A DNA stretch of 64,000 nucleotides from Clostridia bacterium (GTDB taxonomy: Bacteria; Bacillota; Clostridia; Oscillospirales; QAKW01). The stretch is from NCBI GenBank assembly GCA_017440465.1, contig JAFSHF010000024.1, forward strand, positions 298-64,297. Direction: 5' to 3'. The notes beneath the pieces were generated by a model. It was not told the origin of the DNA. It saw only the letters and a list, made by a program, of their open reading frames with translations, and did not search any database. A program made the translations under genes and the position numbers. Positions 40,311 to 59,294 of the stretch are shown here, piece by piece (the stretch's first letter is position 1; each line of letters starts with the position of its first letter).

Positions 40311-40844
40311 ATGAAAAGGACCATCAACCTTTGGCAATGGTTAGGGTTTATCGTCACCGGAATTTTAGGAGTACTTCTCCATTATTTATATGATTGGCTG
40401 GGGCAAAACCCGCTCATCGCCCTCATTTCAGCGGTCAATGAATCCACCTGGGAACATATGAAACTGCTCTTCTTCCCGATGTTCTTGTTTGCGCTGTTGC
40501 AGGCGCATTTCTGGAAGGATCGCCCGCAAAATTTTTGGTGCATCAAACTCTATGGGATCTTGATCGGGCTTGCGCTGATCCCCATCATTTTTTATACCTT
40601 CAACGGCGTTTTCGGTAAATCGCCCGATTGGTACAACATCACCATCTTTTTTCAGGCATCCGCCATCGCTTATTTAGCAGAGACCGCGCTCTTCAAAAGC
40701 GAAAAAGACGGCTGCTGCGCCGCAAAGCTTGCCCTTATCGCCCTGCTCGCCATCGCTGCACTCTTTGCCGCCTTTACCTTCTTTCCGCCCAATATCCCGC
40801 TCTTTCGGGACCCCATTACTATGCAATACGGTATTATTTCATAA
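40311..40844 (+). CDS. Uncharacterised polytopic membrane protein (177 aa)
   Basis: ATG 40311 follows GGGGGA. Five to six hydrophobic segments. Its last ~24 codons plus terminator are duplicated at 59191-59294. Confidence 0.6.
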   Translation: MKRTINLWQWLGFIVTGILGVLLHYLYDWLGQNPLIALISAVNESTWEHMKLLFFPMFLFALLQAHFWKDRPQNFWCIKLYGILIGLALIPIIFYTFNGVFGKSPDWYNITIFFQASAIAYLAETALFKSEKDGCCAAKLALIALLAIAALFAAFTFFPPNIPLFRDPITMQYGIIS

Positions 40845-40875
40845 AAGAAGCCTTGGAATCATCTGATTCCAAGGC
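40772..40875 (+). repeat. Direct repeat, left copy (gene 3' end + terminator hairpin)
   Basis: Ungapped hand alignment with 59191-59294 gives 98/104 identical. The hairpin GCCTTGGAATC...GATTCCAAGGC is conserved. Confidence 0.9.
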
Positions 40876-40916
40876 ATTTTTTGTTTTATAAATTTCCGCT
40901 CTTTAGAGAATACTTA

Positions 40917-41834
40917 TTATATCGCAGTACTTGCATCCCGAAGAAGGTTTATTGCATACTTGGCATAGTCTGAAAGGTATTGCCCACGGCGGGTAACGAT
41001 CACCGGTTGACGGCGGAAGGTATCGTTCTTTATTTTAAATAAGGAAAGATTTGTTTGATCCAAAGATTCACCATCCAAAAACTGCAGCGGCAGTAGGGTA
41101 GCTCCGATGCCTGCTCGCGCCATCGCCCAAGCTGTAGTAAGTCCAACCACTTCCATTGCTATCGGCGGATGGATTTCTTCTGCGGCACAAAGTTGTTCAA
41201 ACAACCGCCGCATCTCCTTGGCAGGTTCCACCACAATACAGGGAAGATTTCGACAATCCTTAAAATCAATCTCAGTAAACTTGTCCCCTTGCTTTAAATC
41301 AAGTCGATCCAGCATCTCATTGGGCACCGCCAACACCAAAATATCCGGCTCAATAGGAATATAGTCCAGCACCGATTCGTCTACCGGCAGGTTCACAATG
41401 GCGAAATCTAATTTTCCCTCAACCACATCCTTGCGGATCTGCTCGCTGTTTGTATCCGAAATGCTGATCTCCACCCCCGGAAAGCGGGCACGAATCTTTT
41501 TAGCGATCTGAGGGATCAAATATAGGCTGCGAAAGGGCGATAGGCCAATAGAAAGCCGCCCATATTCCCCGGAGCGATATTGGTCCATCGATCGCTTAAG
41601 CTGGTCTTCCCTATAAAGCAATTCTTTTGCTTCTTTAATAAAATGCTCCCCCGCCGCAGTGAGTCTCATCGGAACACACTTGCGGTCGAACAGCTTTACC
41701 CCCAAATCATTTTCTAAATTAATAATTTGCTTGCTGAGTGCAGGCTGAGAAATGTTCAATTTTTCCGATACCTTTGAAAAATTACAAACCTCTGCCAATT
41801 CAATGGCATATTGCAATTGTTTTGAATTCATCAC
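40917..41834 (-). CDS. LysR-family transcriptional regulator
   Basis: HTH LQYAIELAEVCNFSKVSEKLNISQPALSKQIINLENDLGVKLFDR. Divergent from the permease gene. Confidence 0.9.
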   Translation of the reverse strand: MMNSKQLQYAIELAEVCNFSKVSEKLNISQPALSKQIINLENDLGVKLFDRKCVPMRLTAAGEHFIKEAKELLYREDQLKRSMDQYRSGEYGRLSIGLSPFRSLYLIPQIAKKIRARFPGVEISISDTNSEQIRKDVVEGKLDFAIVNLPVDESVLDYIPIEPDILVLAVPNEMLDRLDLKQGDKFTEIDFKDCRNLPCIVVEPAKEMRRLFEQLCAAEEIHPPIAMEVVGLTTAWAMARAGIGATLLPLQFLDGESLDQTNLSLFKIKNDTFRRQPVIVTRRGQYLSDYAKYAINLLRDASTAI

Positions 41835-41915
41835 TTTTCTTCCTTATTATAGACAAATCTTTATATAAATGATAACCCTTTCGATATAATTTTGCAAGAA
41901 AAATTTGAAAAATAC

Positions 41916-41944
41916 TTGACATTTCCTTTAGACGGTTGTATTAT
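41916..41944 (+). promoter_or_regulatory. Sigma-A type promoter for the DctM-like permease
   Basis: TTGACA, a 17-nt spacer, then TATTAT. Confidence 0.45.
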
Positions 41945-42010
41945 AACTTACAGGAAATAGATCTTATAACATTTTTCCTATAATCATTTCAAATTCAGGA
42001 GGAAACAAAA

Positions 42011-43375
42011 ATGCCTATCGAAGTATGGTATTTGGTGGCGGTATTCGCAGTTGCGATTACCGGCTTTGTTGTTCTGAAACGTCCCTTATACGAATGTATG
42101 CTTGCAGCGTTCGTTGTTCTGGTTGCCATCACCGGCACCTGGGCCGATATCGGAACATTCATCTGGGATGCTTTGCAAGAATCCACCCTTTATGTGATCT
42201 TTGCATTCATTCTTTCGGCAGCATTGCTTTCAAAAACCTCAGTAATCGACGATTGTATCGCGATCATTCTTTCCATTTTTGGCCGTTTCAGAGGCGGTGC
42301 AGGCTTTGTTGCTGTCATCGGCAGTTCCTACATGGGCTCTCTCTCCGGCTCCGGTCCGGGAAATGTGGCAACCACCGGTGTGTTCACCATTCCTGCTATG
42401 ATCCGTTCCGGTTTCCCGCCCCATTTGGCCGCCAACGTGGAAGCCCATGCCAGCACCATGGGTAATATGATTCCCCCGGCAGGTATGATTGGTGTTGCTT
42501 TTGCCATTTTGGATGGATTGTATCCCAATACCTATACTTTCCCGCAGTATTGGATGCTGCTTTGGGGCATTGCGATCTGGTTCATTCTTCAAAGAATCCT
42601 TACCTTATACTTTATGTGCAGATATTATAAGGTAGAGCCGATGCAAAAAGCTGATATCCCCAGCTTCAAAGAGTCTGTCAAACGCGGTTGGAAGGCGGTA
42701 TTTTTGCCCATCATCGTTTTTGTTCCCTTCCTGCTGACCACCGAATTTGATTATTTCTTTACCGCTCGCTTGGGTGAAGCCGGAGCCAAGGCGCTCAACA
42801 GCAGCCTTCTGCTGATCATCCCCGCATTGATCGTTATCTGCGGTATCTTCCTTTCCGATAAGAAGACCCGCAAGGAAATGACCTTGAAAAATATGTATAA
42901 GGGCATCAACGATGGTATGCTCAAGGTGGTTCCCACCGCGGCTTTGGTTCTCTTTGCTTATTTTGTAAGTAACGTTTTTGAAGCTCTTAAGGTAGAGCAG
43001 GCCATCGGTGACTACTTTGCGGTTTTGAATCTGCCTCGTGTGGTCCTCTGCTTCTTGATCCCGCTGATCTGCGCCATCCTTGGTATGCTGTTGCCCGGTT
43101 CTTCTCAGGTGAAGATCTTTGGCGGCATCATCATCACCATTATGGCCACTGCCGGCTGTAATCCGATGTTGGTTGCCGGTATGCTGCCCTGCATCTGCGG
43201 TTCAATGCACGGTGTTACTCCGCCCTACTGCGCTTGTGTTTACACCGGTATGGGCATAGCCCAAGCGGAATTGAAGCCTACATTGCTCAACTGCGGAATA
43301 TGGGTTGCCTTGCATTATCTGCTCTCGGTTTTGATCCTGCTTGGTTGGCTCCCTGTCTGGGGCCTGATCGGTTAA
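42011..43375 (+). CDS. DctM-like (TRAP large permease family) membrane protein, no DctP/DctQ partner seen
   Basis: 454 aa, polytopic, with GSSYMGSLSGSGPGNVATTGVFTIPAM and NMIPPAG resembling DctM signatures. Confidence 0.65.
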   Translation: MPIEVWYLVAVFAVAITGFVVLKRPLYECMLAAFVVLVAITGTWADIGTFIWDALQESTLYVIFAFILSAALLSKTSVIDDCIAIILSIFGRFRGGAGFVAVIGSSYMGSLSGSGPGNVATTGVFTIPAMIRSGFPPHLAANVEAHASTMGNMIPPAGMIGVAFAILDGLYPNTYTFPQYWMLLWGIAIWFILQRILTLYFMCRYYKVEPMQKADIPSFKESVKRGWKAVFLPIIVFVPFLLTTEFDYFFTARLGEAGAKALNSSLLLIIPALIVICGIFLSDKKTRKEMTLKNMYKGINDGMLKVVPTAALVLFAYFVSNVFEALKVEQAIGDYFAVLNLPRVVLCFLIPLICAILGMLLPGSSQVKIFGGIIITIMATAGCNPMLVAGMLPCICGSMHGVTPPYCACVYTGMGIAQAELKPTLLNCGIWVALHYLLSVLILLGWLPVWGLIG

Positions 43376-43390
43376 GGAGGTTGAAGAATT

Positions 43391-43687
43391 ATGCGTAAAA
43401 AGATTTTTGATGTTTTAAATAAGATCTATGGCGTTCTGATGACCGTCTCCTTCTTCGGCGGTGTTCTTCCGCTGGTTCCCTTCTTGGTAGCCTTGGTTAT
43501 CGGCGGTGAGGCTGCCGAAAAGATTTCGGTATTTTTCTCCGAACAGTATTATCCTTGGGTTATCATCATCGGCTCCATTGCTATTGTCTTTGGATTGATC
43601 GCGATGTATGTGGGCAAGCTGGAAGGCTTGAGTGTCAAGAGCGTTACAGCGGATAAAAAAGCCAAAGAACAACCCGAAGAAAAATAA
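43391..43687 (+). CDS. Small two-TM membrane protein coupled to the permease
   Basis: 98 aa. AGGAGG SD. Lys/Glu-rich tail. Confidence 0.5.
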   Translation: MRKKIFDVLNKIYGVLMTVSFFGGVLPLVPFLVALVIGGEAAEKISVFFSEQYYPWVIIIGSIAIVFGLIAMYVGKLEGLSVKSVTADKKAKEQPEEK

Positions 43688-43696
43688 TAAACTAAT

Positions 43697-43733: not shown

Positions 43734-44975
43734 TTATTTCAAATCCAAAGGCTTAATATCAGTAAGCAAATCGCGGCGCAGCATATCTTCACCCTCGGTG
43801 TTGATAATTCGGATACGTGCCTTGGCTGCATTATGCTTTTCCACCAACTCCTCATAGGAATTTGCTTGAATGGTGATACTGGCAATGCGATCACTGCTGG
43901 TGGCAGCATTAAAGATCTCAGCACCTTGGTGCTTAAATTGCCAATATTCTGCCAAAATTCCTTCTTGCTTCAGTTCCTCAAAGCCTTCCAAATGGTCGAA
44001 ATGACCAAGTTTTCCATATAAGAATTCATTGGTGATATATTTGCTTTCCGAACGGATCTCGCCAACCTCTACCTTTTCACCCAAGGTGAGGTCTACCACA
44101 GCCTTGATGGGATCAAATCCGCTGGCCATCTTCAACAACAGATATTTGGCACCGCCGCCGTTACGAGCACAAAACTCCAGCACCGATTCTCTTTTATCGT
44201 CGGTAAGGAGCTGAACCAACATCGGCGTATTTTTTAAGCCAAATGCATCGGCAATCTTTTGCCCGATCTCGCGGATACGCTCCAAGGTTTCGGGTTTAAT
44301 TGCAGCAGGGTAGCGGGTACGGAATGCCAGAAAGCGATCCTTATAGTCTACCTTTTCGGTATTGGATGCGCTGAGCAAATAGGACTTGCCATCTACAATC
44401 TGGTAATCAACTGTAATCTCCGCGCCTTCCACAAATTCTTCCACAATGACAATGCCTGATCGGCTGATATTGGCAGCCTCAGCAAAGAATTGCTTTAATT
44501 CCTCTTCGTTGGTAGCCTTGCGCACACCTTTAGAGCTATAGGCATCAGCGGGCTTTACCACCAACGGATATTGGATTTCGGCGACCTTTTGCATATCCAA
44601 TGTTTTCATAAACATATGCTTTGAGGATGGAATGCCGTATTGATGGAATATCGCTTTCATATGGCTCTTATCGGATACTGCGCAAGCGGTTTCATAATCA
44701 ATATAGCAAGGCAAGCCCAGCATTTCCGAAACCTTTGCCACAGTGATCAACACTTGATCTGCACAGACGGTGATCAAAAAGTCTACCTTTTCTTCTTCGG
44801 CAACCTTTTTCACCGCCTCCACATTCAGCAGATCTACCTTGACAAATTGGTCGGCATACGGGCGTGCAACCGCATTCACATTATTATCGGCGAGGATTGT
44901 ATAAATTCCTCTTTCTTTCAACTGACCGAGCAGCACCGCCTGAGAAGGACTGCCGGCAAGAACTAATGCTTTCAT
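43734..44975 (-). CDS. ATP-grasp ligase (glycan locus, ATP-grasp 4)
   Basis: ATG 44975 (MKALVLAGSP...) and YPLVVKPADAYSSKGVRKATNEEEL. Paralogous to 49807..51117 and 52381..53589. Confidence 0.8.
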   Translation of the reverse strand: MKALVLAGSPSQAVLLGQLKERGIYTILADNNVNAVARPYADQFVKVDLLNVEAVKKVAEEEKVDFLITVCADQVLITVAKVSEMLGLPCYIDYETACAVSDKSHMKAIFHQYGIPSSKHMFMKTLDMQKVAEIQYPLVVKPADAYSSKGVRKATNEEELKQFFAEAANISRSGIVIVEEFVEGAEITVDYQIVDGKSYLLSASNTEKVDYKDRFLAFRTRYPAAIKPETLERIREIGQKIADAFGLKNTPMLVQLLTDDKRESVLEFCARNGGGAKYLLLKMASGFDPIKAVVDLTLGEKVEVGEIRSESKYITNEFLYGKLGHFDHLEGFEELKQEGILAEYWQFKHQGAEIFNAATSSDRIASITIQANSYEELVEKHNAAKARIRIINTEGEDMLRRDLLTDIKPLDLK

Positions 44976-44988
44976 TTTGATTCCCCTA

Positions 44989-45633
44989 TTAATTTTTACG
45001 TACCGTAAGATCGTCGTATTTATTAAAAGCGACTCCCTTACCGCCAAGAACGGTGCCCACTGTGCGGAAAAGGATCTTGATGTCTAACCAGAGGCTGAAG
45101 TGATCAATGTATTGGATATCCAATTTGATCTTCTCGGTCCAAGTAAGCTCATTGCGGCCGTTAACCTGCGCCCAACCGGTAACCCCGGGGCGCATTTCCA
45201 TCCGTCTACGCTGTTCCTCGGAATATTGCTCCACCTGATACGGAAGAGTGGGCCGCGGACCAACAAAGCTCATGGTTCCGTTTAAGATATTAAATAACTG
45301 CATCAACTCATCCAAACTGGTCTTGCGCAAAAAGGCACCAACTTTATTAATGCGGTCCTCAGATTTGAGCAATTCGCCGTTGGCTTGATAGAGAACCCCG
45401 TTCTCTACATAGGAATCTTCCGGCGGAAGATCCATGGTGCGGAATTTATATATTTTAAAAATCTTGCCGTCCTTGCCCACACGATCCTGAACAAACACCG
45501 CCGGCCCCTTGGAGGTCAACTTGATGACAATGGGAACCACGATCAACACAGGGATCGCAATTAAAATAAGAATCATCAGCGCGCTGGCAATGATATCAAA
45601 GGTTCGTTTTAATGCCAATTGAAGTTTTCTCAT
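44989..45633 (-). CDS. Small monotopic phosphoglycosyl transferase (PglC/WbaP C-terminal type, initiating sugar transferase)
   Basis: KRTFDIIASALMIL..., KFRTM, FVGPRPTLPYQ and RPGVTGWAQVNGR. Confidence 0.85.
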   Translation of the reverse strand: MRKLQLALKRTFDIIASALMILILIAIPVLIVVPIVIKLTSKGPAVFVQDRVGKDGKIFKIYKFRTMDLPPEDSYVENGVLYQANGELLKSEDRINKVGAFLRKTSLDELMQLFNILNGTMSFVGPRPTLPYQVEQYSEEQRRRMEMRPGVTGWAQVNGRNELTWTEKIKLDIQYIDHFSLWLDIKILFRTVGTVLGGKGVAFNKYDDLTVRKN

Positions 45634-45653
45634 TTACTCCATCTCCATCTGAT

Positions 45654-46679
45654 TTATCGGTTTTCATACATATTCTTATAGTAGTTCTGATATTCGCCCG
45701 AAATGATGGTTTCCCACCATTCGCGGTTATCCAGATACCATTGGATTGTTTTCTGAATGCCCTCTTCAAACCTTGTTTCGGGCAGCCAACCCAATTCGTT
45801 ATGGATCTTGGTGGGATCAATGGCATAGCGCATGTCGTGTCCCTTCCGATCCGCCACATAGGTGATGAGACTTTCCGGCTTATCCAGTGCCTTGCAGATC
45901 AATCGAACAATATCGATATTCCGCATCTCATTATGACCGCCGATATTATAGACTTCACCGATCCGCCCCTTATGCAGAATCAAATCAATTGCCTTGCAGT
46001 GATCCTCCACATAAAGCCAGTCGCGTACATTCAGCCCTTCCCCATAAACCGGCAAGGGCTTATCGTTTAGCGCATTGGCAATCATCAGCGGGATTAACTT
46101 TTCGGGGAAATGATAGGGACCATAGTTATTGGAGCAGCGGCTGATGGTCACCGGCAGGCCAAAGGTACGATGATATGCCTGCACCATCAAATCCGCCGAC
46201 GCCTTCGCCGCCGAATAGGGCGAACTTGTATGGATCGGGGTCTCCTCGGTAAATAAAAGATCAGGACGATCCAGCGGAAGATCTCCATAAACCTCATCGG
46301 TTGAAACCTGATGAAAGCGGATATTGCCGAATTTGCGGCAGGCATCCATCAGAATCTGCGTTCCCAAAATATTGGTTTTGAGAAACACCTCGGGATCCTC
46401 AATGGAGCGATCTACATGGGATTCCGCCGCAAAATTGACCACAACATCGGGCTTCTCTTCTTCAAACAATTGATAGATCCCTTCACGATCGCAGATATCA
46501 ATTTTAACGAAACGGAAGTTTTCCTTCTTCAGCACTGATGCCAGGGTAGAAAGATTTCCCGCATAAGTAAGTTTATCCAGACAGACAATGCGATACGCAG
46601 GATATTTGTCCATCATATGAAATATGAAATTCGAGCCGATAAAGCCGGCACCGCCGGTAACAAATACAGTTTTAGACAT
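45654..46679 (-). CDS. rfbB: dTDP-glucose 4,6-dehydratase
   Basis: VTGGAGFIGSNF, YSAAKASAD (YxxxK). 341 aa. Confidence 0.95.
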   Translation of the reverse strand: MSKTVFVTGGAGFIGSNFIFHMMDKYPAYRIVCLDKLTYAGNLSTLASVLKKENFRFVKIDICDREGIYQLFEEEKPDVVVNFAAESHVDRSIEDPEVFLKTNILGTQILMDACRKFGNIRFHQVSTDEVYGDLPLDRPDLLFTEETPIHTSSPYSAAKASADLMVQAYHRTFGLPVTISRCSNNYGPYHFPEKLIPLMIANALNDKPLPVYGEGLNVRDWLYVEDHCKAIDLILHKGRIGEVYNIGGHNEMRNIDIVRLICKALDKPESLITYVADRKGHDMRYAIDPTKIHNELGWLPETRFEEGIQKTIQWYLDNREWWETIISGEYQNYYKNMYENR

Positions 46680-46680
46680 C

Positions 46681-47550
46681 TTATTTCTCCTTAATCAATG
46701 AGAGCAGATACTGCCCATAATCGGTCATCTTCAGACTTTCACCGATGGCACACAACTGCGCATCGGAAATAAATCCGCGTCGCCAGGCGATCTCTTCAAT
46801 ACAAGATACATAGAAACCTTGCCGATCCTGTACTGCTTCCACAAACTGAGCCGCTTTGAGCATTCCATCGGGCGTACCTGTGTCAAGCCACGCGATTCCG
46901 CGCCCCATTAACTCTACGCGCAACTCGCCCAGCTCCAGATAAGCGTTGTTGACCGCGGTGATTTCGATCTCTCCGCGAGCAGATGGTTTTACCTTCTTTG
47001 CAATTTCAACCACTCTGTTATCATAAAAATACAATCCCGGAACGGCATAATTGGATTTGGGTTGTGCCGGTTTTTCCTCGATGGAAACAACACGGTGGTC
47101 TTTATCAAATTCTACCACACCGAAAGCGGTCGCATCTTTCACAGGGTAACCGAAGATGGTGGCACCGGAAGAATTTTCGATGGCACGTTTGAGAATTTTG
47201 GTCATATCCTGCCCAAAAAACACATTGTCGCCCAATATCAAGCAGACGCTGTCTCTACCGATAAATTCCTCGCCGAGGATAAATGCGTCCGCCAGCCCAC
47301 GCGGCGTTTCCTGCACCTTATAGGAGATAGATACGCCGATAGTGCTGCCATCACCCAAAAGTTTTTCATAAATAGGGGTATCCTCCGGAGTGGAGATAAT
47401 CAAAATTTCCCGAATCCCTGCCAATAGCAGCATCGACAAGGGATAATAGATTAACGGCTTATCATAAATAGGCAGAAGTTGCTTGGAAACTACCTTTGTC
47501 ATGGGATACAAACGAGTTCCTTTTCCGCCGGCCAGAATAATTCCTTTCAT
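46681..47550 (-). CDS. rfbA: Glucose-1-phosphate thymidylyltransferase
   Basis: ATG 47550 ([18 protein letters not shown]), preceded by GGGAGG. Confidence 0.95.
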
Positions 47551-47569
47551 AGATACAACCTCCCTGTTT

Positions 47570-48670
47570 TTATTGCAAAATAATATCGCAGATTCGATCG
47601 ACATCCTCCAAAGAAAGATCCGCATAGAGCGGAAGAGTCAACACACGCTCTGCAAAATAATCAGCAATCGGTGTCTTTTCCTTTCCCGCAGAGGGCAAGG
47701 CCTGATAGCAGGAAAAGGCATTGGTCAGCGGATAAAAATACTTCCGCGCAAGAATTTCCTTTTCCTTCAAAAGCGCAACGACCTGATCTCTTGAATATTT
47801 ATACCCGTCGAACACAACGGGGAAATAGGCATAATTAGATTGCACATCCTTTTGGATCACCGAAAGCTTAATGCCGGGGATGTTTTCCAACCGCGCCCGA
47901 TACCGTTCCACTACCGCCTTGCGTTTGGCGATCTCTTGGTCGATATGGCGCAGATTGCAGATCCCCATCGCCGCCTGAAACTCGTTCATTTTGGCATTGC
48001 CGCCGACATATAAACACTCTTCTTGCCCATGCAATCCGAAGTTACGGATATCGCTCAGCTTTTCGACCAGCAACTCATCCCCATAGCAAAGGCAACCGCC
48101 CTCAATGGTATGATAGACCTTAGTGGCATGGAAACTAAACATGGATGCATCGCCAAAACTACCGATCCCCGCGCCCCGATATTTCACACCGAAGGCATGA
48201 GCGGCATCATAGATCACCTTCAGACCGTGGCGGTCAGCAATCTCTTGGATCGTATCCACGTCGCAGATATTGCCGTATACATGGACGGGAACGATCGCGC
48301 AGGTCTTTTCGGTGATCAGCCCCTCGATCTTGGTAACATCCATCGTATAATCCCGCTCATTGACATCGCAGAAAACAGGCACCAGACCGTTTCGAGCAAT
48401 AGCATGGGTGGTGGAAACAAAGGTAAAAGGCGTTGTTATCACTTCGGAGCCCTTCGGAAAATCCAATGCCGCAATGATATTCTCCAGCGCCAGATGCCCG
48501 TTGGTATACAGTGCCACCTGCGGCACACTCAAATAATTTTCCAATTCTGCCTGCAGTTGCTGATGCTTGGCTCCCATATTAGTCAGCCAGCGGCTCTCCC
48601 ATAAATCCTTGATTTCTTCGCAATATTCTTCATAAGAAGGCATAGAGGAACGGGTAACGTTAATCGCCAT
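47570..48670 (-). CDS. DegT/DnrJ/EryC1/StrS-family sugar aminotransferase
   Basis: PLP lysine in [14 protein letters not shown]. 366 aa. Adjacent to rfbA/rfbB, and no rfbC/rfbD is present. Confidence 0.85.
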
Positions 48671-48681
48671 AAATTCTCCTT

Positions 48682-49794: not shown

Positions 49795-49806
49795 TTCTTT
49801 ACTCTT

Positions 49807-51117: not shown

Positions 51118-51147
51118 TTTTTACCCTCCAAAAAGTATCTCTTTTGT

Positions 51148-52110
51148 TTATCTTTTATTATTTAAAATAATTCCAACGATCCGATCCATATCTTCTTCGC
51201 CGTAGCGTTGATCGCAGGGCAACGGTAAAATATTCTCCGCCAATTCTTTTTCAAGCGTTGCATCATATTCCAGAACGTTTGGCCATAGAGTAGCAACGTA
51301 TATTTTTTCGCGCGCGAGCATTTTCTTTAATTCCATTCCGTTTTTACAATAAAACGGATAGCAATAAGGACCAATAGGCGCGCAAAGTTTTAAGGGATTT
51401 GTTTCCCCCAGCGCCGCTTCTAATACAGCGTAGTTTTCTTCGCGCCTACGGCGAACTGCCGCATAATCGATCCCACGCAAGATATTCTCCGTCAGTACCG
51501 ACATTTTCCTTAACGGTAGATCATAAAATAATTCATCGTTTTGCTGAAAGGCAGCATAATGCTCCGCTGCGGTTTCTTCCAATCGCCCCAAAATATGCTC
51601 CATCCGCTCCTTGGATTGATCCCGCTCCAAAGGCTCGTCCAATCGCTGCTCGGTGGAAACATATCCGCCGTCGGGCACGCCGAAAAACTTTCTGCAGGAA
51701 TAGATCGTATCGATTCCGGGAACCGCTTGCTGAAAGAACGCCTGAACGTTATCAAAAATCAGATTGCCCCAACGCTCCTTCATCTCCTGCGCTTCTTGGT
51801 TGGAGATCTGTCCATAAAAGTTGACCACATAGATCGCTTCATCCGGCTGCAACTCCCGCTCAAAAACAGGGCGGAAGGAAGCATCGATGGGATATTCTTC
51901 ATAGGCAATTCCTTCCCGCACGCAGAGCTTATAAACGCTATCGCATAAAAAGCGTGGAATATAAAGTTTGCGATACCGCCGCGCCCGTAGCAGATATAAA
52001 AGCGCATTGCGCCCGCTGTTTACACCGATAGCACCGCAATGATATTCTTCGCCGCCATATTGCTCAAATCCAAAATAACCGCCGATTTCTTTCACAAAAT
52101 CACATCTCAC
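51148..52110 (-). CDS. Divergent DegT-fold (PLP-dependent-transferase-like) protein
   Basis: 320 aa. YSCRKFFGVPDGGY resembles the S-x-x-x-K...GG PLP-lysine block. Only GTG starts are available (52110 or 52095), abutting the MITE-like element. Confidence 0.5.
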   Translation of the reverse strand: MRCDFVKEIGGYFGFEQYGGEEYHCGAIGVNSGRNALLYLLRARRYRKLYIPRFLCDSVYKLCVREGIAYEEYPIDASFRPVFERELQPDEAIYVVNFYGQISNQEAQEMKERWGNLIFDNVQAFFQQAVPGIDTIYSCRKFFGVPDGGYVSTEQRLDEPLERDQSKERMEHILGRLEETAAEHYAAFQQNDELFYDLPLRKMSVLTENILRGIDYAAVRRRREENYAVLEAALGETNPLKLCAPIGPYCYPFYCKNGMELKKMLAREKIYVATLWPNVLEYDATLEKELAENILPLPCDQRYGEEDMDRIVGIILNNKR

Positions 52111-52390
52111 TTTAGGGTGAGCAATTAAATTTGAACACCGTTTTGAAAAGGTGTTTTTCGCTCACTCATTGTTATAATACTCGCCAATACGACAGTATTG
52201 ACTGCGTTTTTGCCTTGATTGAACAAAAAACACTCTTTTCAAAATCTTTGACCGCAAAGCGAGAAGATTTTGTGGGATTTTTGTTCAATTTGGGTGATGT
52301 AAGGCTGCCGCCTTACGAGAACAAATAGGGCAAAAAGCACCAAAATGTTCCGCTTTGAGGCGGAGTTCAAATTTGATTGCTCACCCTAAA
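52111..52390. mobile_element. MITE-like non-coding element, copy E2 (280 bp, 30-nt terminal inverted repeats, TA at both ends), inverted relative to E1
   Basis: TTTAGGGTGAGCAATTAAATTTGAACACCG (52111-52140) matches the reverse complement of 52361-52390 at 28/30. Shares GGCGAGTATT(T/A)TAACA and the GTA(A)GG...CCTTAC hairpin with E1 at mirrored distances from the ends. Confidence 0.5.
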
Positions 52391-53589
52391 AGAACTTTAA
52401 CGAATTTTTCTTGGTTTTCCAAAACTTCAACCAGCCGCTGCTGGGAATCAAATTGCAACACCAGCGTTCCAATGGCTTCGTTGGCACCGGAAAAATCGCC
52501 AACTGCATCTCCACTGCGAATCCAGAGGTCCTCTTCCACCACATTGGCTTTAATTTCATCGGCGATCCAAAGGGAATCGAAGGTTCCTGCCTTAGAGCTA
52601 TGCAAAATGATCTCTGCCCAGCATCCATTATAGGGCTTTTGCTCTATATCGATCACCGGCATTCCAACCGCCGCCCGCACTGCGCCTTCGATCAGATCCA
52701 CTCCGGTTGCATACCGGAGCATCTCCGCCAAGCGATTTCCGCCGCCGCGGGGGGAAAGTTCCATAATATAGTTCTTGCCATCGGTACATTCGCGGGTTTC
52801 AATATTATAAATAGAGGTCTTCATATCCAGAAGTTTCAGCAACCGCTGGATCTCTGAAGCCAATTCTCTTTGGTTTTCGTCAGCGATGGTAGCAGGCCAG
52901 CTATACGCCGAGGGTGTATAGGGATTGCCTGCCCGATCATCAAATCTCTGCGCCGAAAAGGATACAAACTTCAATTCGCCATCCACCGAAAAACTATCGG
53001 TATCGGAAGAATGACCTTTCTTTTCAAGAAAATCCTCAATGATAAATTCATCTGAATGGGAGAAGGAAAGGGCATAGCGGATGCTTTCTTCCAGCTTGGC
53101 GGGATCATCCACGCGGGTAACGCCCTTGCTTCCGGCCGAATCTGTGGGTTTCACAATCACCGGCCAATGAAAGATATCTTTCTCCGCCAACGCATCTTCA
53201 ATGCTATGGTAACCCTTCGCGGTAGGAACGTTAAACCCATTCTCCGCTAAAAACTTACGGAACCGCCCCTTGTTTTGCAAAATGCTGACCGATTCATAAG
53301 AACCGCAAGAAGGAAGCCCCAGCTTTTCCGCCACATAAGCCGCAGTTGCCACTCCCGGATCGCAAGCAAAGGACATAATGCCATCTACGTTTAGCTCCTT
53401 GGCTGCCTGCAAAACCGCATCCTTATCGATGATGCTCACATTGCAATATTCATCGGAATATTGATGGGCAATATTATCGGGCAGATAATCGCAAGAGATG
53501 GTATAGATTCCCAATTTTTTCGCCGCTTCAATCACCGGCAACAAATAACGGGATCCGCCCAGCAACAATAGTCTTTTTTGATTGGCCAT
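52381..53589 (-). CDS. ATP-grasp ligase (ATP-grasp 1)
   Basis: WPVIVKPTDSAGSKGVTRVDDPAKL. 402 aa. The stop TGA (52381-52383) lies inside the E2 terminal repeat. Confidence 0.8.
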   Translation of the reverse strand: MANQKRLLLLGGSRYLLPVIEAAKKLGIYTISCDYLPDNIAHQYSDEYCNVSIIDKDAVLQAAKELNVDGIMSFACDPGVATAAYVAEKLGLPSCGSYESVSILQNKGRFRKFLAENGFNVPTAKGYHSIEDALAEKDIFHWPVIVKPTDSAGSKGVTRVDDPAKLEESIRYALSFSHSDEFIIEDFLEKKGHSSDTDSFSVDGELKFVSFSAQRFDDRAGNPYTPSAYSWPATIADENQRELASEIQRLLKLLDMKTSIYNIETRECTDGKNYIMELSPRGGGNRLAEMLRYATGVDLIEGAVRAAVGMPVIDIEQKPYNGCWAEIILHSSKAGTFDSLWIADEIKANVVEEDLWIRSGDAVGDFSGANEAIGTLVLQFDSQQRLVEVLENQEKFVKVLLG

Positions 53590-53590
53590 A

Positions 53591-55060
53591 TTAAGAATTC
53601 CTCTTTTTCTTCGGCATAATTTTTTTCACTGTTTCCATAAACAACATAAACGGAGGCAGTTTCAGCAGCCACGAGATCCCCAGATAGATGGCAACCCCTG
53701 CCACCACCTGCAACGAAATGATGATCCATTCGTTGAACTGCAGCCGGCCGAGCGCCAAAACTCCGGCCAACATCACTATAGAGGCCAGCATGGAGGGAAG
53801 GATATCTGCAATCTGCTCCCGATAAAAATAATTTACCAACTTTCGATTGGGACCGGCGTTGATAAAACAACTGATGATCCCGGTGATGATCCCGGTCATC
53901 GCAATGGCGATGGGGGAATTAAAGCAAAACACCGCAATGGTCAATGCGGTAACCCCCATGGCTTTTTTGATGATCTCCAGTTTTAAGAAGATATCGCTTC
54001 TTCCCATCGCGTTGATCGCTTGCAGATTGCAGGAATGAACCGGATAAAACGCAAATGTAAAACAATAAATTTGCATATAGGGCACGCAAGGAAGCCATTT
54101 TTCGGTGAGTAATATTTTTACCAACGGTTCCGCCACGCCGGCAAGCCCTGCCATCATCGGAAAAATAATATAGGAGCTGAGTATGATGGAATTACGCATC
54201 ATACCCTTCACCTTTTCTTTCTCGCTTTGATTTTTAGAAAAGGCGGGCAGCATCACCGATTGAACGGTGGTATTGATGGCGTTGATGATAAATTGCGGAA
54301 ATTGCTTACCGCGATTATAATAACCCAGTGTGCCCGAATCGTATTTCTTGCCGATCACCAGGCTGCGCAGATCCTGATACAAGGTATCGATCAGTCCGGA
54401 AACCAATAATTTCCAACCATAGGCAAAAAGCACCTTGATCCGCGCAAAGTTGCAGACCAAGCGCGGTCGGAACTTAACGGTGAGCCACATCACAATACAG
54501 GCAACGAAAACATTCAATAAGTTTTGAGCCACCAGCGCCCAAAGCCCTGCGCCAAGATAGGCCAACACCACTCCGGTTACTCCTGCGACCAAAATGGCGG
54601 CAACATTGCTGAAAAAGATCTTTTTAAACTGTAAATTGCGGCTGATCTTGGCGATCTGGATGGAATTGAGCGCACCGGGGAACAGCACCAGGCAAAGAAC
54701 CCGGAAGGGCTGAACCAGATCCGGCATTTCATAGAATTTTGCGATCCAAGGCGCAGCAAAGAATAACACGCCGTAAAGCCCCGCGGCGATGACCATGGTG
54801 ACCCAGAAGACCGAAGAATAATCCTCTTCCGTAACATCCTTGTTTTGAATCAACGCGGTATTAAACCCACGCTGGATAAAAACATTCGCCAACGTAGTAA
54901 AGATAATCATCATCGAAAGAACACCGTAGTGCTCCGGATCTAAGATACGGGCAAGAACGATCTGCAGAACAAATTGCGTTCCCTGAACGCCGAATCGTTC
55001 CAAGAACTTCCATATCAACGCAGAAGATATTGATGATTGTTTGTTTTTCTTACTTTCCAT
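53591..55060 (-). CDS. wzx: Wzx-type oligosaccharide flippase (MOP superfamily)
   Basis: 489 aa, about 12-14 TM segments. N-terminus FLERFGVQGTQFVLQIVLARIL is typical of polysaccharide biosynthesis (PST) proteins. Confidence 0.8.
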   Translation of the reverse strand: MESKKNKQSSISSALIWKFLERFGVQGTQFVLQIVLARILDPEHYGVLSMMIIFTTLANVFIQRGFNTALIQNKDVTEEDYSSVFWVTMVIAAGLYGVLFFAAPWIAKFYEMPDLVQPFRVLCLVLFPGALNSIQIAKISRNLQFKKIFFSNVAAILVAGVTGVVLAYLGAGLWALVAQNLLNVFVACIVMWLTVKFRPRLVCNFARIKVLFAYGWKLLVSGLIDTLYQDLRSLVIGKKYDSGTLGYYNRGKQFPQFIINAINTTVQSVMLPAFSKNQSEKEKVKGMMRNSIILSSYIIFPMMAGLAGVAEPLVKILLTEKWLPCVPYMQIYCFTFAFYPVHSCNLQAINAMGRSDIFLKLEIIKKAMGVTALTIAVFCFNSPIAIAMTGIITGIISCFINAGPNRKLVNYFYREQIADILPSMLASIVMLAGVLALGRLQFNEWIIISLQVVAGVAIYLGISWLLKLPPFMLFMETVKKIMPKKKRNS

Positions 55061-56030
55061 AAGCAGATTTTATCATCCTTGCTATCGGTTTCATAACTAT
55101 TTCATATAGGCGCGGGAATTTGCATCGAATCAATGTTGAAAAGCGGAACAGCGCACTTCTAGACTTATGAATTTCCTCTAATTCTTTTGAATGAAGCGTT
55201 TTCAGATCGTGTTCCATCATAGCCTGCATATAACGATGACGCTTCCTTCTTTTGTTTACTGCCTCTTCATATTTATGATCGGTTGCTTCATTAAAGGCAT
55301 CTAAGCCTTCGATCATCTGCCGACTGATTTTTGCGCGCGCATCATCATTATCCATACGTACAGTCCAGGAATTTTTTGAATAAAACCGATACACCGCCAT
55401 AGTGTCTGCCAACATTCGCACCTTTCCATTTAATGCCGCATTTAACGCCAACGGATAATCACCGATTGGAAAGGCTCTACACCACAAAGGCATCCCCACC
55501 CAAACATCGGTTTTCATAAACACGGTAGCATATTGAAAGATTCGGCCGTTTTCCTCCAAAATAATCTCCTTCAGGGAAATATCACGATCTTCCTTGATCC
55601 TTCCCCTGTTTTCCAGGTGGCCGGTCTTTATATTATACCAGTCTGTTGAACATATACAAAGGGAGTATTCCGGATGTGCCTCCATAAAATCGTATTGCTT
55701 TTGCAATTTCAAAGGATCGGTCCAATAATCATCTCCCTCACACATAGCAACATATTTTCTTTTTGCGCGAGGTTTCTGAAATGTTCTATCAATGCCGATT
55801 CTTTTTGAATATTGATTCTCTGTCTGATAAATCGGTTTGATGATCGACGGATACTTTTCTTCATATTCGCGAATGATCTCCGCGGTACCGTCGGTCGATG
55901 CATCGTCGTGAATCAATACTTCAAAAGCAAAATTTGTCTTTTGATTTACAAAGCCTTCCAATGCATCGCGAATATATTTTTCATGGTTATATGCGTTGCA
56001 GATAATGCTTACTTGAACTGTAGGATCCAT
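55050..56030 (-). CDS. Family-2 glycosyltransferase
   Basis: VSIICNAYNHEKYIRDALEGFVNQKT, VLIHDDASTDGT and a DxD-like EGDDYW. Confidence 0.85.
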   Translation of the reverse strand: MDPTVQVSIICNAYNHEKYIRDALEGFVNQKTNFAFEVLIHDDASTDGTAEIIREYEEKYPSIIKPIYQTENQYSKRIGIDRTFQKPRAKRKYVAMCEGDDYWTDPLKLQKQYDFMEAHPEYSLCICSTDWYNIKTGHLENRGRIKEDRDISLKEIILEENGRIFQYATVFMKTDVWVGMPLWCRAFPIGDYPLALNAALNGKVRMLADTMAVYRFYSKNSWTVRMDNDDARAKISRQMIEGLDAFNEATDHKYEEAVNKRRKRHRYMQAMMEHDLKTLHSKELEEIHKSRSALFRFSTLIRCKFPRLYEIVMKPIARMIKSAYGK

Positions 56031-56047
56031 TGTTTTCTCCCTTAATT

Positions 56048-57172
56048 CTAATTCAGAAAAACGAAACTATAGGGAACTGTTTCGCTGGCATTCCTTAAAA
56101 CATAAATATAAAACCAATAAACCAAAGCGGCAGCCAAAACTAAACCGCTGACAGTCCATTTTTTCTTTTTATCCGTCTGTGCTCTTTCAACCAGCGCAAT
56201 CAATGCAAAAAACGGCAACGCGCAGTAAATTGAAAACCGTTTTCCGTATATAATGCTCCAAGAAAACTGAAGCAACAGAAGATATATGATCCCGCTCAAT
56301 GCCCAAAAATCAAATTTATCACAACTCTTTGCCATCGACTTTCTGAAATAAAAAACCAAACAAAGCCCTGCAACAACATAAACAGACGCGATAAAGGCGG
56401 GGCTGATCACATCGGTACGGAAATAAAACGCATATTTTTGGCTGAATATTCCTATTCTTATAAACCAAGTGGCCACCGGCTTCATCAGAACGATCGCCAT
56501 CAAAACCAGCGCGATCATAATGCCCCAACGGTACCACCGTTTTTTATTGAGCGGCTCCCAATTCCAATTCAAAATAAAATACAAAACAGGATAAATCAAC
56601 GCCAGCAACGCCGTTGTGTGAACGAAGGCGGCAAGCAACACAACGATACAATATCTTAAAAATTTTCCTTCCTGAATATCGGCAAACACCATAAAGACAA
56701 TTGCCATCACCATATGCTGTCGCGTCAGATTCAACGACTGGTTATATAAAAATAAATAATATAATAATAGGATCCAAGCGGGTTCTACATACTTTTTCAG
56801 TCGAAACGAACCAATATAGATTCCTGAAATAATAACTGCGTGCATCGCAATCAAAAACACGCTGAAATTATGCGTGATCCTCGATATCAGGCCAACAAGC
56901 AGGGCAAAAAGAGGCTCAAAATAACCGGTGGCAAAATAACGTTTGAAATATTCTATCAGCGTGTCGCTTTTAATTGCCGCCGACCAATACGCCTGATGCT
57001 CTTTATAGTTCATAGTATCAATACCAATACTATAATCTCGCAAGCCCGCAAGCAAAACAGTTATTAATATGCTGATTGCAGAAAAAAGGTAAAACAGCGT
57101 TTTCTTTTTGGTTCGGTTTGCCCAATAGGCAAAACCAACCGATATGGAAAAACAAACAAGATATATTAACAA
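56048..57172 (-). CDS. EpsG/Wzy-type polysaccharide polymerase
   Basis: 374 aa, highly hydrophobic polytopic protein with an EpsG-like N-terminal region. TTG start. Confidence 0.65.
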   Translation of the reverse strand: MLIYLVCFSISVGFAYWANRTKKKTLFYLFSAISILITVLLAGLRDYSIGIDTMNYKEHQAYWSAAIKSDTLIEYFKRYFATGYFEPLFALLVGLISRITHNFSVFLIAMHAVIISGIYIGSFRLKKYVEPAWILLLYYLFLYNQSLNLTRQHMVMAIVFMVFADIQEGKFLRYCIVVLLAAFVHTTALLALIYPVLYFILNWNWEPLNKKRWYRWGIMIALVLMAIVLMKPVATWFIRIGIFSQKYAFYFRTDVISPAFIASVYVVAGLCLVFYFRKSMAKSCDKFDFWALSGIIYLLLLQFSWSIIYGKRFSIYCALPFFALIALVERAQTDKKKKWTVSGLVLAAALVYWFYIYVLRNASETVPYSFVFLN

Positions 57173-57198
57173 TCTATCTATGCCTCCAAATAATAATC

Positions 57199-57756
57199 TT
57201 ACACATTTCTTTGCCCTGCAAACTCATCCCACATAAAATCTGCCAGCGGAGCAGAAATCACCTGGTGAGCCGGCTTAAGTTCTGTGGGATAGCTAGTTGT
57301 TCTGTTCTTTAAATAATCATCCATACTGCAGATTACCTTTGCAGGAACACCACCCACAACCGAATTTGAAGGAACATCCTTCGCTACCACCGCGCCGGCG
57401 GCAACGATCGAATTTTCACCGATACGAACATTGTTTAAAATCGTTGCATTTGTACCGATAAAAACATTATCCATAATCTCAATACAGCCAATGATCTCAT
57501 TATAGTCATCTGTATCATTTTTTGTGTTCAACATATAATGAGTAACATCGTGGGTTGCAAAGGTTACATGCGATGCAATGCGCACATTATTATGGATCTT
57601 TATCAAATTTGCATAAAGTGGAATTTTTCGATCCATAATCGTTACGTTCTCTCCAAGTTCCGCAAATATATGCTTCTTTCTCATATAATCAACGCGGTCT
57701 TTGCTGCTGATCATCGACCAAAGCCGAATGGTTTGCCATAAACGCTTCCCGGTCAT
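57199..57756 (-). CDS. Hexapeptide-repeat acetyltransferase (LacA/Maa/WbbJ-like)
   Basis: Left-handed beta-helix repeats [43 protein letters not shown]. Confidence 0.8.
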
Positions 57757-57793
57757 ACTTCCTCCTAATTCTATACAACTTTATCTTCATTTC

Positions 57794-59020
57794 TTATTCA
57801 AAGCAGCTGCGGATGACCTCGATGATCACATCCTGCTGCTCAGGGGTCATCTTATTATCGCTGGGCAGGCATAAGCCCCGCTCAAATAAGTCCATACCGA
57901 CGTCTTCACCTGCGCCGGCGATATAGGCGTTGGTGCAGGCGCGTCCGTCTCCCTTTCGGGTGACAAAATCGTGCATCCGGAAGATCGGCTGCATATGCAT
58001 CGGCTTCCAGATAGGGCGCCCCTCCGCATTGATCGCCGCGAGCTTTTCCAAAATCTCTGTCGGGCAGGATTTGCCGGGTTCGGAGATATAGAGCGCATCG
58101 GTCTCACTGCGCACTTGCTTACACATCGCATCCCGATCAATGATCATACAACTAAGCCAGAAGTTCGGCTCGGCGTTTTGTTCATCATAAGGATTCATTT
58201 GGATGGGCAGATCCTTGAGCCCTTCTTTATAGCGCATATAGATCGCTTTTTTCTGGGCAATATGCTCTTCCAAATAGGGAAGCTGACCGCGGACCACACC
58301 GGCAATGACGTTGCTCATCCGATAGTTATAACCGATTTCTTCGTGCTGATACCAAGCGGCATTTTCACGGCTTTGGGTGGACCATTTTCTTGCTTTATTC
58401 GCCTGCTCGATATCATTGGTCAGCAACATACCGCCGGAAGAACCGGTAATGATCTTATTGCCGTTGAAAGAAACAATGCTCAGATCACCAAAGGTGCCGG
58501 TCTGCTTCCCCTTATAGGTTGCGCCCATCGATTCTGCCGCATCTTCGATCAGGATGGCATGGTGCTTATCGCAGATGGCGCGGATCTCATCCAGCTTGCC
58601 GGGTACACCATACAGATTGACCAAAACCACGTGCTTGACATCAGGATGCAATTCAAAGGCCTTTCCCAACGCCGCAGGATCCATATTCCAGGTATCCATC
58701 TCGGTATCGATGAAGATCGGAATGCCGCCCTCATATACCACAGGGTTTACCGTCGCGGCAAAGGTGACATCTGAGCAGAAGACCTTGGTGCCCCGAGAGA
58801 TCCCCGCCAGCTTCATACATAAATGCAAGGCCGAGGTGCCGGAAGCCAAACCGACCGCATACTTACATCCGATCTTTTCGGCGACGATCCGCTCGACTTC
58901 ATTGATGTTTTCCCCTACCGTAGACATCCAGTTGGTCTCATATGCTTTTTGGACGTATGCCAATTCCTCTCCGTGCATTGTAGGTGTTGCGAGCCAAACT
59001 TTATTTTCAAAAGCGTTCAT
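57794..59020 (-). CDS. DegT/EpsN/PglE-type sugar aminotransferase (408 aa)
   Basis: PLP lysine in SFNGNKIITGSSGGML. First gene of the locus. Confidence 0.85.
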   Translation of the reverse strand: MNAFENKVWLATPTMHGEELAYVQKAYETNWMSTVGENINEVERIVAEKIGCKYAVGLASGTSALHLCMKLAGISRGTKVFCSDVTFAATVNPVVYEGGIPIFIDTEMDTWNMDPAALGKAFELHPDVKHVVLVNLYGVPGKLDEIRAICDKHHAILIEDAAESMGATYKGKQTGTFGDLSIVSFNGNKIITGSSGGMLLTNDIEQANKARKWSTQSRENAAWYQHEEIGYNYRMSNVIAGVVRGQLPYLEEHIAQKKAIYMRYKEGLKDLPIQMNPYDEQNAEPNFWLSCMIIDRDAMCKQVRSETDALYISEPGKSCPTEILEKLAAINAEGRPIWKPMHMQPIFRMHDFVTRKGDGRACTNAYIAGAGEDVGMDLFERGLCLPSDNKMTPEQQDVIIEVIRSCFE

Positions 59021-59089
59021 TTATTCTTCCATCCTTTTAACGATGTTCTGCACTGCATATTTATTACATAGCACAATGTTTCATTGTAT

Positions 59090-59118
59090 ATTATATACTA
59101 CTCATCGATTTTTTTCAA
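59090..59118 (-). promoter_or_regulatory. Sigma-A type promoter of the glycan operon
   Basis: Minus strand reads TTGAAA (59118-59113), a 17-nt spacer, then TATAAT (59095-59090), about 70 nt upstream of ATG 59020. Confidence 0.5.
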
Positions 59119-59170
59119 GTCTTTATATAATAATATATTATATTTATACTCACTTGTCTTCCTAATCTCC

Positions 59171-59263
59171 GGTGCCTTATTATTTGCGATCTTTACCTTC
59201 TTTCCGCCCAATATCCCGCTCTTTCGGGACCCCATTACAATGCAATACGGTATCATTTCATAA
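59171..59263 (+). pseudogene. Orphan 3' fragment of a gene homologous to 40311..40844
   Basis: Reads GALLFAIFTFFPPNIPLFRDPITMQYGIIS-stop. No start codon or N-terminal body lies upstream. Both nucleotide differences from the intact copy within the shared coding part are synonymous. Confidence 0.7.
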
Positions 59264-59294
59264 AAACAGCCTTGGAATCTTTTGATTCCAAGGC
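59191..59294 (+). repeat. Direct repeat, right copy
   Basis: 98/104 identity to 40772-40875 (hand alignment). Confidence 0.9.

Follow-up and report, generated by a model that had tools for sequence, protein, structure and literature searches.

A strain-variable, recombinase-free glycan island with a displaced DUF6512 gene end in an uncultured gut bacterium of the Oscillospiraceae/Eubacteriales

The DNA described here is a window of 64,000 nt (the whole stretch analysed, from contig JAFSHF010000024.1 of a Clostridia bacterium), in which nt 40890–59182 (18.3 kb) form a strain-variable genomic island of an uncultured Oscillospiraceae/Eubacteriales gut bacterium. The island is recombinase-free and of an ordinary kind. 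On its left lies the intact gene of a DUF6512 membrane protein, and on its right an orphan copy of the 3' end and terminator of this same gene, facing the DUF4097-HAAS-PadR operon of the backbone. Between the two gene ends are a LysR-family regulator, a DctM-type permease accompanied by a small hydrophobic protein (p98), and a glycan operon of 14 genes (Table 1).

Table 1. Features of the island, its boundaries and its right flank (window coordinates; nt, nucleotides; aa, amino acids)
Feature	Coordinates	Strand	Basis
Intact DUF6512 membrane-protein gene, 177 aa; target with duplicated 3' end	40311..40844	+	Pfam PF20122, E=1e-28
Left copy of duplicated segment (core 40772-40875): last 23 codons, stop, terminator, T-tail	40734..40889	+	empty-site similarity reaches 40889
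Left terminator hairpin, 11-bp stem, loop ATCT, common to convergent DUF6512 and LysR	40850..40875	.	fold -23.7 kcal/mol (+), -19 kcal/mol (-)
LysR-family regulator, first cargo gene	40917..41834	-	Pfam HTH_1 and LysR_substrate
DctM-type permease (454 aa) and 98-aa hydrophobic protein (p98) without family match	42011..43687	+	Pfam DctM, E=2e-50
14-gene glycan operon	43734..59020	-	Pfam scans
Promoter-like site TTGAAA-17-TATAAT (11/12) before glycan operon, inside island	59090..59118	-	consensus match only
Diverged 5' part of orphan DUF6512 end, 13 codons (LVFLISGALLFAI), in frame and register with core	59153..59190	+	21/38 identities to 40734-40771
Right copy: orphan last 23 codons and stop (to 59262), terminator, tail into DUF4097 flank as in empty sites	59191..59308	+	alignment, empty-site comparison
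Right terminator hairpin, stem extended to 16 bp, loop TTTT; terminates convergent DUF4097 operon	59264..59299	.	fold
DUF4097-HAAS-PadR operon, right backbone flank; adjoins DUF6512 in empty-site genomes	59301..61112	-	Pfam, synteny

In coordinate order, the glycan operon encodes an ATP-grasp protein, a small initiating sugar transferase, RmlB, RmlA, a DegT aminotransferase, ATPgrasp_ST, a further ATP-grasp protein, a 320-aa open reading frame (ORF) without family assignment, another ATP-grasp protein, a Wzx flippase, GT2, EpsG (Wzy-like), a hexapeptide acyltransferase and a second DegT aminotransferase (DegT2), the last being the first gene of the operon. The families expected of a Wzx/Wzy-dependent locus are represented (Bac_transf, Polysacc_synt_3, EpsG, Glycos_transf_2, RmlA, RmlB and two DegT). 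No chain-length regulator or export co-polymerase of the Wzz or CpsC/D type was found by Pfam among the island ORFs, and one could be encoded elsewhere. From its predicted gene products, the operon is that of a Wzx/Wzy-dependent locus in all respects but the chain-length regulator. A sequence-only reading of this DNA had listed a LysR regulator, a DctM-like permease and 14 glycan genes as the cargo, and this list was borne out by Pfam, with the 98-aa ORF to be added.

The G+C content of the island is 45.0%, against 51.3% and 50.4% in the syntenic backbone on either side, in keeping with the lower G+C content that had been noticed for the enclosed DNA. The G+C content of third codon positions ranges from 0.38 to 0.59 in island genes, with the exception of DegT2 (0.62), and from 0.58 to 0.69 in the backbone. 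The sequence-only reading had also reported no integrase, recombinase or transposase inside the segment, and Pfam scans of the cargo ORFs likewise gave no recombinase family, nor any transfer or mobilisation gene; the precomputed Pfam lists available for related contigs are equally free of recombinase families. Searches of the island against plasmid and phage collections (megablast) returned no match. Since tRNA and Rfam scans of the window also gave no match, the target is not of the tRNA or tmRNA type.

The two copies of the gene end (40772–40875 and 59191–59294) align without gaps at 98 of 104 positions. In a repeat search of the 64-kb window the pair extends to 154 nt at 82% identity (40734–40887 vs 59153–59306, spacing 18,419); the single other long direct repeat detected is an unrelated 68-nt pair of 71% identity. 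Two of the differences between the copies are in the coding part and are synonymous (40820 T/A, ACT/ACA; 40835 T/C, ATT/ATC), two are just past the stop codon (40847–40848, GA/AC), and the remaining two, at 40861 and 40863, are in the 4-nt loop of the hairpin. The gene to which the left copy belongs has orthologues of 87–99% aa identity in syntenic AIM24-CNNM-CNNM-DUF6512 contexts. The right copy reads in frame to ...LVFLISGALLFAIFTFFPPNIPLFRDPITMQYGIIS-stop, and upstream of it there are stop codons and an AT-rich promoter region in place of a gene body, so that the orphan amounts to the last ~36 codons of DUF6512 plus the terminator. Realignment and the DUF6512 match of the ORF therefore uphold the earlier description of the pair: an ungapped match of 98/104, with six differences placed as above, between the true end of an intact 177-aa gene with its terminator and a second copy encoding the same peptide and hairpin without a gene body. 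The further suggestion that both copies had evolved as functional gene ends is statistically weak, as it rests on two synonymous changes, for which the chance of 2/2 being synonymous is 0.05, and the right hairpin would be under selection anyway because it is the terminator of the convergent DUF4097 operon.

Both hairpins are stable, with folding energies between -19 and -28 kcal/mol and z-scores relative to shuffled sequence between -6 and -9. A Xer/dif-type site within the hairpin was considered and is improbable: the perfect palindrome of 11 bp, its 4-nt loop and the T-tail behind it are those of an ordinary terminator. That the repeat pair reflects chance similarity, a dispersed repeat or an assembly artefact is ruled out, to near certainty, by the 98/104 match in register with the gene end; both junctions were also seen in independent assemblies from several samples and studies.

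The orphan end does not begin with the near-identical segment. Its first 38 nt (59153–59190) are much more diverged from the resident gene, with a similarity that is nevertheless significant (shuffle p=3e-4; 0.04% of window 38-mers match as well), and no similarity to DUF6512 was found further 5' of this part. Profile searches carry little weight over such a short membrane segment, as even the true resident 13-codon segment scores just 2 bits with the DUF6512 hidden Markov model. Because identity jumps abruptly from 55% to 94%, the orphan end is a mosaic of 38 diverged nt followed by 104 near-identical nt. The 38-nt part is kept in an island-bearing strain that is ~3% diverged (run X5, see below). 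A protein search with the 41-aa orphan-end peptide produced no candidates for a donor allele.

Relatives were obtained from a scan of one genome per species, and are uncultured ruminant-gut Clostridia labelled Eubacteriales or Oscillospiraceae. One of these (L010) carries a 95%-identical DUF6512 gene directly before DUF4097-HAAS-PadR-TetR-p272, with flanks of 90–92% nt identity to the window. Looking up the closest DUF6512 proteins (98–99% and 90% identical) added seven more empty-site contigs (L089–L095). Their flanks are 97.6% (left) and 95.5% (right) identical to the window at nt level in L093 and L094, 96.5% and 94.2% in L095, and ~93% and 89% in L089–L092. In the empty-site contigs, nine in all from four related lineages with 90–98% nt identity in the flanks (L010 and L089–L095), the DUF6512 stop codon is followed after 36 nt by the stop codon of DUF4097, with one copy of the segment and no scar. 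The backbone DUF6512 gene and the DUF4097 operon are convergent, and in the relatives one bidirectional terminator lies between the two. Similarity of L089–L095 to the window runs from the left to nt 40889 and restarts at nt 59183, and from this comparison the duplicated target length is ~126 nt (40764–40889 and 59183–59308).

Further public runs from bovine and goat gut contain contigs in which an intact DUF6512 gene is continued by the right-hand flank. Where a run contains the island, the depth of the island in Logan contigs is about half that of the DUF6512 gene or flank; these contigs break inside the repeat and show presence and depth. A more distant relative (L009, 84–87% identity) gives no information on the site, as its contig ends at DUF6512. 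An exact-pattern scan of Joint Genome Institute (JGI) metagenomes for the repeat core gave no hit, which suggests that this collection does not contain the species.

The empty sites, each with one copy of the segment, show that the 18.3 kb are accessory, and it is very likely that they form an accessory island for which the polarity of change was insertion. The arrangement that the sequence-only reading had proposed to look for, with the membrane-protein gene directly before the DUF4097 operon, is therefore present in L010 and L089–L095. Its two adverse outcomes were not seen: the relatives are not all filled, and the segment is not a dispersed repeat, being found once in every empty genome, where it is the orthologous gene end.

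Comparison of both window copies with the empty-site alleles revealed a reciprocal distribution of variants. In its coding part the left copy has ACT and ATT, as in the three closest lineages (L010 has ACA at the first site), and after the stop codon it differs from the closest empty allele, L093 (AAAAGA, loop ATCT, GGCA, TTGTTTTAT). The right copy has a unique ATC, and an ACA that otherwise occurs only in L010, the most distant empty-site contig, and past the stop codon it agrees with L093 (AAAAAC, tail TTATTTGATTTCAACATAAATATCGCC, also given as TTATTTGATTTC...). Terminator stems are invariant across all lineages and the loops all differ (AAAA, GGTG, AACC, ATCT and TTTT). As a separate observation, at the loop position (40861–40864, 59280–59283 and the same position in L010, L089 and L093) the TTTT and AAAA loops are each the reverse complement of the other, as would result from an inversion of the loop.

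In several samples, both junctions are covered by contigs that match the window fully or almost fully. A 30.5-kb scaffold starting at window nt 32408 should, from its length, reach ~62,960, beyond both junctions; the 18.4 kb of it that were retrieved cover the left junction and the island to nt 50844. The filled group consists of contigs with flanks 99.6–100% identical to the window, together with strains 1–3% away. All island-bearing contigs have the same two junctions, including a strain with an island that is 94–99% identical, so that there was one insertion, common to strains that have since diverged.

The interior of the island is more variable than its borders. Contig L007 is 100% identical to the window from nt 61929 down to 58290, a stretch that takes in the right repeat, the promoter and the first 730 nt of DegT2; within DegT2 identity drops to ~80%, and different glycan genes follow. 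The left end of L099, which comes from the sample of L007, is again DUF6512-LysR-DctM-p98 as in the window. In run X5, the island contigs are 94–99% identical to the window and lack nt 55311–57938, while the orphan end, including its 38-nt part, is kept. Since the breakpoint of L007 is in DegT2 and not at the repeat, the swap is an inner replacement by homologous recombination. The expectation that alternative cargo would be found between the same repeats was thus correct as to the cargo, which exists in L007, and incorrect as to the place of exchange. A 3-kb contig (L100/L004, ERZ28653748 scaffold_55237) is identical to the window through DUF6512 and LysR, and from the equivalent of nt 41875 has a 92-aa dsrm-domain ORF in place of DctM; either the contig is chimeric or the island has a third variant.

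Units resembling the island occur at other chromosomal sites in other species. In a set of 5.8 billion proteins, the nearest non-identical homologue of the LysR regulator is 84% identical and all others are at or below 75%. Around four of these homologues (66–74%; L103–L106), LysR, DctM and a membrane ORF of 94–102 aa are found together. An ATP-grasp gene is directly beside this trio in three of the four cases, and in two of the three the cluster runs on into glycan genes; in L105 glycan genes are found a few kb off, on the other side of the trio, and in L106 the trio plus one ATP-grasp gene stands amid housekeeping genes. The most extensive match is L104 (JAZPNJ010000025.1), with ten genes 57–86% identical (aa) to those of the island and in the same relative arrangement by LysR-DctM-p98. 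Its neighbours are Amidohydro_2, a nicotinamide mononucleotide (NMN) transporter and MTHFR, and not DUF6512. Among 78 other DUF6512 loci, none has a LysR homologue within 10 kb. The presence of homologous units at different sites in other species indicates that the block behaves as a transferable unit. The linkage of LysR, DctM, the membrane ORF and ATP-grasp, of which the island has four genes, suggests from gene content that an imported acid may be ligated onto amino sugars. In L103 (11396–12708) a 280-aa tyrosine recombinase followed by inverted repeats of ~95 nt lies by the LysR homologue; the two form a small mobile element that borders the LysR-DctM-glycan unit and is unrelated to it.

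Whether the DUF6512 3' end is otherwise a site of insertion was examined at 80 of at least 587 DUF6512 loci found in genome contigs. Two further cases were seen. In L077 (1511–3200, uncultured Ruminococcus sp., CAZQTN010000043.1), the last 43 nt of DUF6512 are repeated 1.1 kb downstream, with 2 synonymous changes and a different stop codon, and the insert is one 324-aa ORF without family match and without a recombinase. In L078 (10525–13180, JAGASL010000026.1, a metagenome-assembled genome of a Clostridia bacterium), copies of the 38-nt terminator hairpin flank 2.6 kb of inserted DNA with two genes, one for a 330-aa product and one for an AAA-type ATPase of 458 aa, again without a recombinase; from its genes this insert could be a small defence-like cassette. 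At the same loci, however, a nearby direct second copy of the gene end was found for 18 of 894 control ends, compared with 2 of 78 DUF6512 ends. No recombinase is among the 25 most frequent families of the 137 ORFs downstream of DUF6512 in 70 genomes, although single occurrences remain possible. As the rate is close to background and no recombinase is frequent, the DUF6512 3' end is not claimed as a special insertion hot spot. It is also highly doubtful that recombinase-free insertion of blocks at the terminators of convergent genes is a recurrent, distinct process in gut Clostridia, for example a hairpin-primed one, or that the island is a site-seeking element that carries a copy of its target end and uses host recombination only. 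Such a process would rest on the three independent DUF6512 cases (the island, L077 and L078) and on the ~1–2% of other gene ends with second copies.

The island is not the only indel of this part of the genome. A block of TetR, a 137-aa and a 272-aa ORF (61167–63050) is present in the window and L010 and absent in L089 and L093. Further indels are located at 32085–34222 (33–36% G+C, with a 374-aa ORF and an HTH_26 gene) and at 35597–36432 (an NMN-transporter gene). No flanking direct repeats were found at the three other indels relative to conspecific or near-conspecific genomes. The notion that indels of this lineage generally carry flanking repeats is rejected on these grounds, and the duplication is specific to the island event.

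A dispersed non-coding element of ~270 nt is located at 52140–52361, in the intergenic region between the 320-aa ORF and ATP-grasp 3. Other copies are found in the window at 5684–5949 (other strand) and in L093 at 11820–12086, and the copies are 69–80% identical. The element has terminal inverted repeats (GGTGAGCAAT.AAATTTGAAC ... GTTCAAATTTGATTGCTCACC), no Rfam match, and a depth in metagenome contigs of 5–7 times that of the surrounding island. It looks like a miniature inverted-repeat transposable element (MITE).

The best explanation for the locus as a whole, held with slightly less than even confidence, is insertion by a single crossover, followed by spread of the island between strains and swapping of its inner genes. 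The Campbell-type origin taken alone is put forward more tentatively still. Incoming DNA would have carried a fragment of the DUF6512 3' end, and a single reciprocal crossover between this fragment and the resident gene end would have inserted the whole block and duplicated ~126–154 nt. One copy would then complete an intact gene with the cargo behind it, and the other would be left as an orphan end that still serves as the terminator of the DUF4097 operon. Since the island encodes no recombinase, the crossover would have been made by host homologous recombination or by a recombinase acting in trans. Vertical inheritance of the island would have followed, along with transfer between strains through homologous recombination in the flanks, and inner glycan genes would have been swapped in the same manner. 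In keeping with a single crossover, the two copies have the same orientation and neither is cut short before the end of the hairpin. A diverged, in-register 38-nt part is to be expected because the incoming DNA would bring its own gene-end fragment. The reciprocal variants, at some five sites, would be the pattern that a crossover near the stop codon leaves.

Several points weigh against this account. The number of informative sites is only ~5. Both copies have a resident-like coding core of 63 nt, so that an added conversion tract or later gene conversion is needed, and gene conversion is also hinted at by CCC in both window copies, where L093/L094, L095 and L089/L090 have CCT (L010 has CCG). 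The incoming fragment would itself need to be mosaic, with 38 nt at 55% followed by 104 nt at 94%, and recombination of the RecA type would have had little homology to act on (104–154 nt). Pfam scans of all 17 cargo ORFs gave no hit to families of recombinases, relaxases, replication proteins or phages, nor was any mobility-gene remnant or pseudogene found in the island, and the repeats abut working genes: the LysR stop codon lies at 41 nt from the left copy, and the orphan end begins 132 nt upstream of the DegT2 start codon. Finally, relative to L093 the left flank is ~98% identical, nt 59183–61166 ~95%, and the sequence beyond nt 63350 again 98–99%. The right flank is thus more diverged than both of its surroundings, indicating that the region right of the island was also exchanged by recombination, and the present island copy may have come in together with this flank from a different strain, hiding the primary event.

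A somewhat unlikely alternative is displacement of the 3' end by one-sided homologous together with illegitimate recombination (homology-facilitated illegitimate recombination, HFIR). A linear donor with the 3' part of DUF6512, a terminator and the island would have paired by homology within DUF6512 or to the left of it, and illegitimate joining of its other end ~36 codons before the resident stop codon would have closed the insertion, pushing the resident end downstream as an orphan. An intact gene with cargo and an orphan end further down is the architecture of Rhs and type VI secretion system (T6SS) loci (PMC5361080), and the succession that defines such orphans, intact gene, new DNA and then a start-less 3' fragment, is present here. 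The lack of mobility genes and the clean junctions are also accommodated, as are the recombinase-free duplications of differing extent in L077 (43 nt) and L078 (38 nt) and those at ~1–2% of gene ends, since variable junction positions argue against a single site-specific enzyme. However, this mechanism predicts resident sequence over the first 38 nt of the orphan, which are in fact 45% different from the resident and from all empty alleles (21/38). The donor must, moreover, already have held the island behind a near-identical DUF6512 end, which explains transfer and not origin, and between close relatives two-sided homologous recombination is far more efficient and leaves no orphan.

In a further alternative the polarity is reversed and the island is an old locus, its orphan end decayed over 38 nt, the core kept alike by gene conversion, and the empty sites derived from deletion or replacement by an empty allele; a divergence of 45% would then be long neutral decay, and the CCC common to both window copies would fit conversion. 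Recombination between 104-nt direct repeats would give a scar-free single copy as seen in the empty sites, island-bearing strains differ by up to 4–6% within the island, which is therefore not very recent, and glycan loci often have a low G+C content even when old. This history is nonetheless decidedly unlikely: four lineages at 2–10% divergence are all empty and one tight group is filled, requiring several independent losses, L009 lends no support, related units are at other sites in other species, and the origin of the duplication is still unexplained. Less probable again is a decayed integrative and conjugative element (ICE), integrative and mobilizable element (IME) or prophage that was site-specific for the DUF6512 3' end and of which attL and attR are left after loss of the integrase and transfer genes (a cis-mobilizable element, CIME, in the strict sense; PMC5704250), with the glycan genes as cargo or later accretion. 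Direct repeats that include a protein-coding target end, with a replacement end borne by the element, are typical of integrative elements, and the in-register diverged 38 nt resemble the outer arm of an attachment site. Against this, all of the 18.3 kb is one functional unit that abuts the repeats, with neither pseudogene remnants nor unused non-coding DNA, no plasmid or phage match was obtained, the 137 ORFs behind DUF6512 in 70 genomes include no frequent recombinase family, and DUF6512 ends are not significantly enriched for second copies (2/78 vs 18/894). In the attL/attR-like interpretation of the sequence-only reading the repeats would be recombinase substrates; no recombinase was found in or near the island and none is frequent behind DUF6512.

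Single-crossover insertion, the preferred explanation, has its parallel in Campbell-type integration of circular DNA, which leaves the common segment duplicated in direct orientation on either side of the insert, the parentage being reciprocal to left and right of the crossover. The island differs from that model in that no circular form or replicon is known for the block, and in its resident-like core, present in both copies, which needs a conversion step. Its later history resembles capsule or O-antigen switching, in which loci are exchanged by homologous recombination in conserved flanks, as for pneumococcal cps between dexB and aliA: inner glycan genes vary (L007, X5), breakpoints are in conserved edge genes (DegT2), flank divergence is raised, and G+C content is low and mosaic. 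In capsule switching, however, every strain has the locus, while here most relatives are empty and the locus is bounded by a duplicated gene end.

As in 3'-end islands, ICEs and IMEs, the target gene is intact and one repeat copy supplies its end, and there is likewise an empty site in related strains and a foreign-looking composition. CIMEs are elements that have retained attL and attR and lost the genes for integration and transfer (PMC5704250). The island likewise has no genes for integration, transfer or other mobility functions; as its repeats are putative recombinase substrates, it would be a candidate CIME. It differs from ICEs, IMEs and CIMEs in having no mobility-gene remnant and no cognate integrase-bearing element at DUF6512 in the relatives examined, in its long (104–154 nt) and mosaic repeat, and in its cargo, a complete chromosomal-type glycan locus that fills the element. 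Recombinase and transfer genes were tested for and are absent, and the island is therefore not of the ICE, IME or prophage class. Orphan 3' ends are also produced by C-terminal displacement at Rhs, contact-dependent inhibition (CDI) and T6SS effector loci, and have been attributed to HFIR (PMC5361080, citing Jackson et al. 2009, PMC2935791). There too a new gene end and extra genes are brought in, a start-less old end is left downstream, and no dedicated recombinase is involved. Unlike the case described here, the displaced ends at those loci are variable toxin tips and the process changes the protein; in the island both ends encode the same peptide, the gene is a landing site only, and the cargo is 18 kb of unrelated function.

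The locus, an accessory glycan island that lacks a recombinase and has a displaced gene end, belongs to an already known kind of structure. Its mosaic orphan end is a tidy natural example of recombinase-free island insertion, although not by itself a new mechanism. Further work would be best directed at this end and at the conserved regulator-importer-ligase-glycan unit. The pairing of regulator, importer, ligase and glycan genes across species offers a testable link from an imported acid to a sugar. More broadly, the comparisons document a surface-glycan locus coming and going between strains of an uncultured ruminant-gut bacterium. Surface-glycan loci are main determinants of recognition by phages and by host immunity, so that the presence or absence of the island and its serotype-like variation are useful strain markers.

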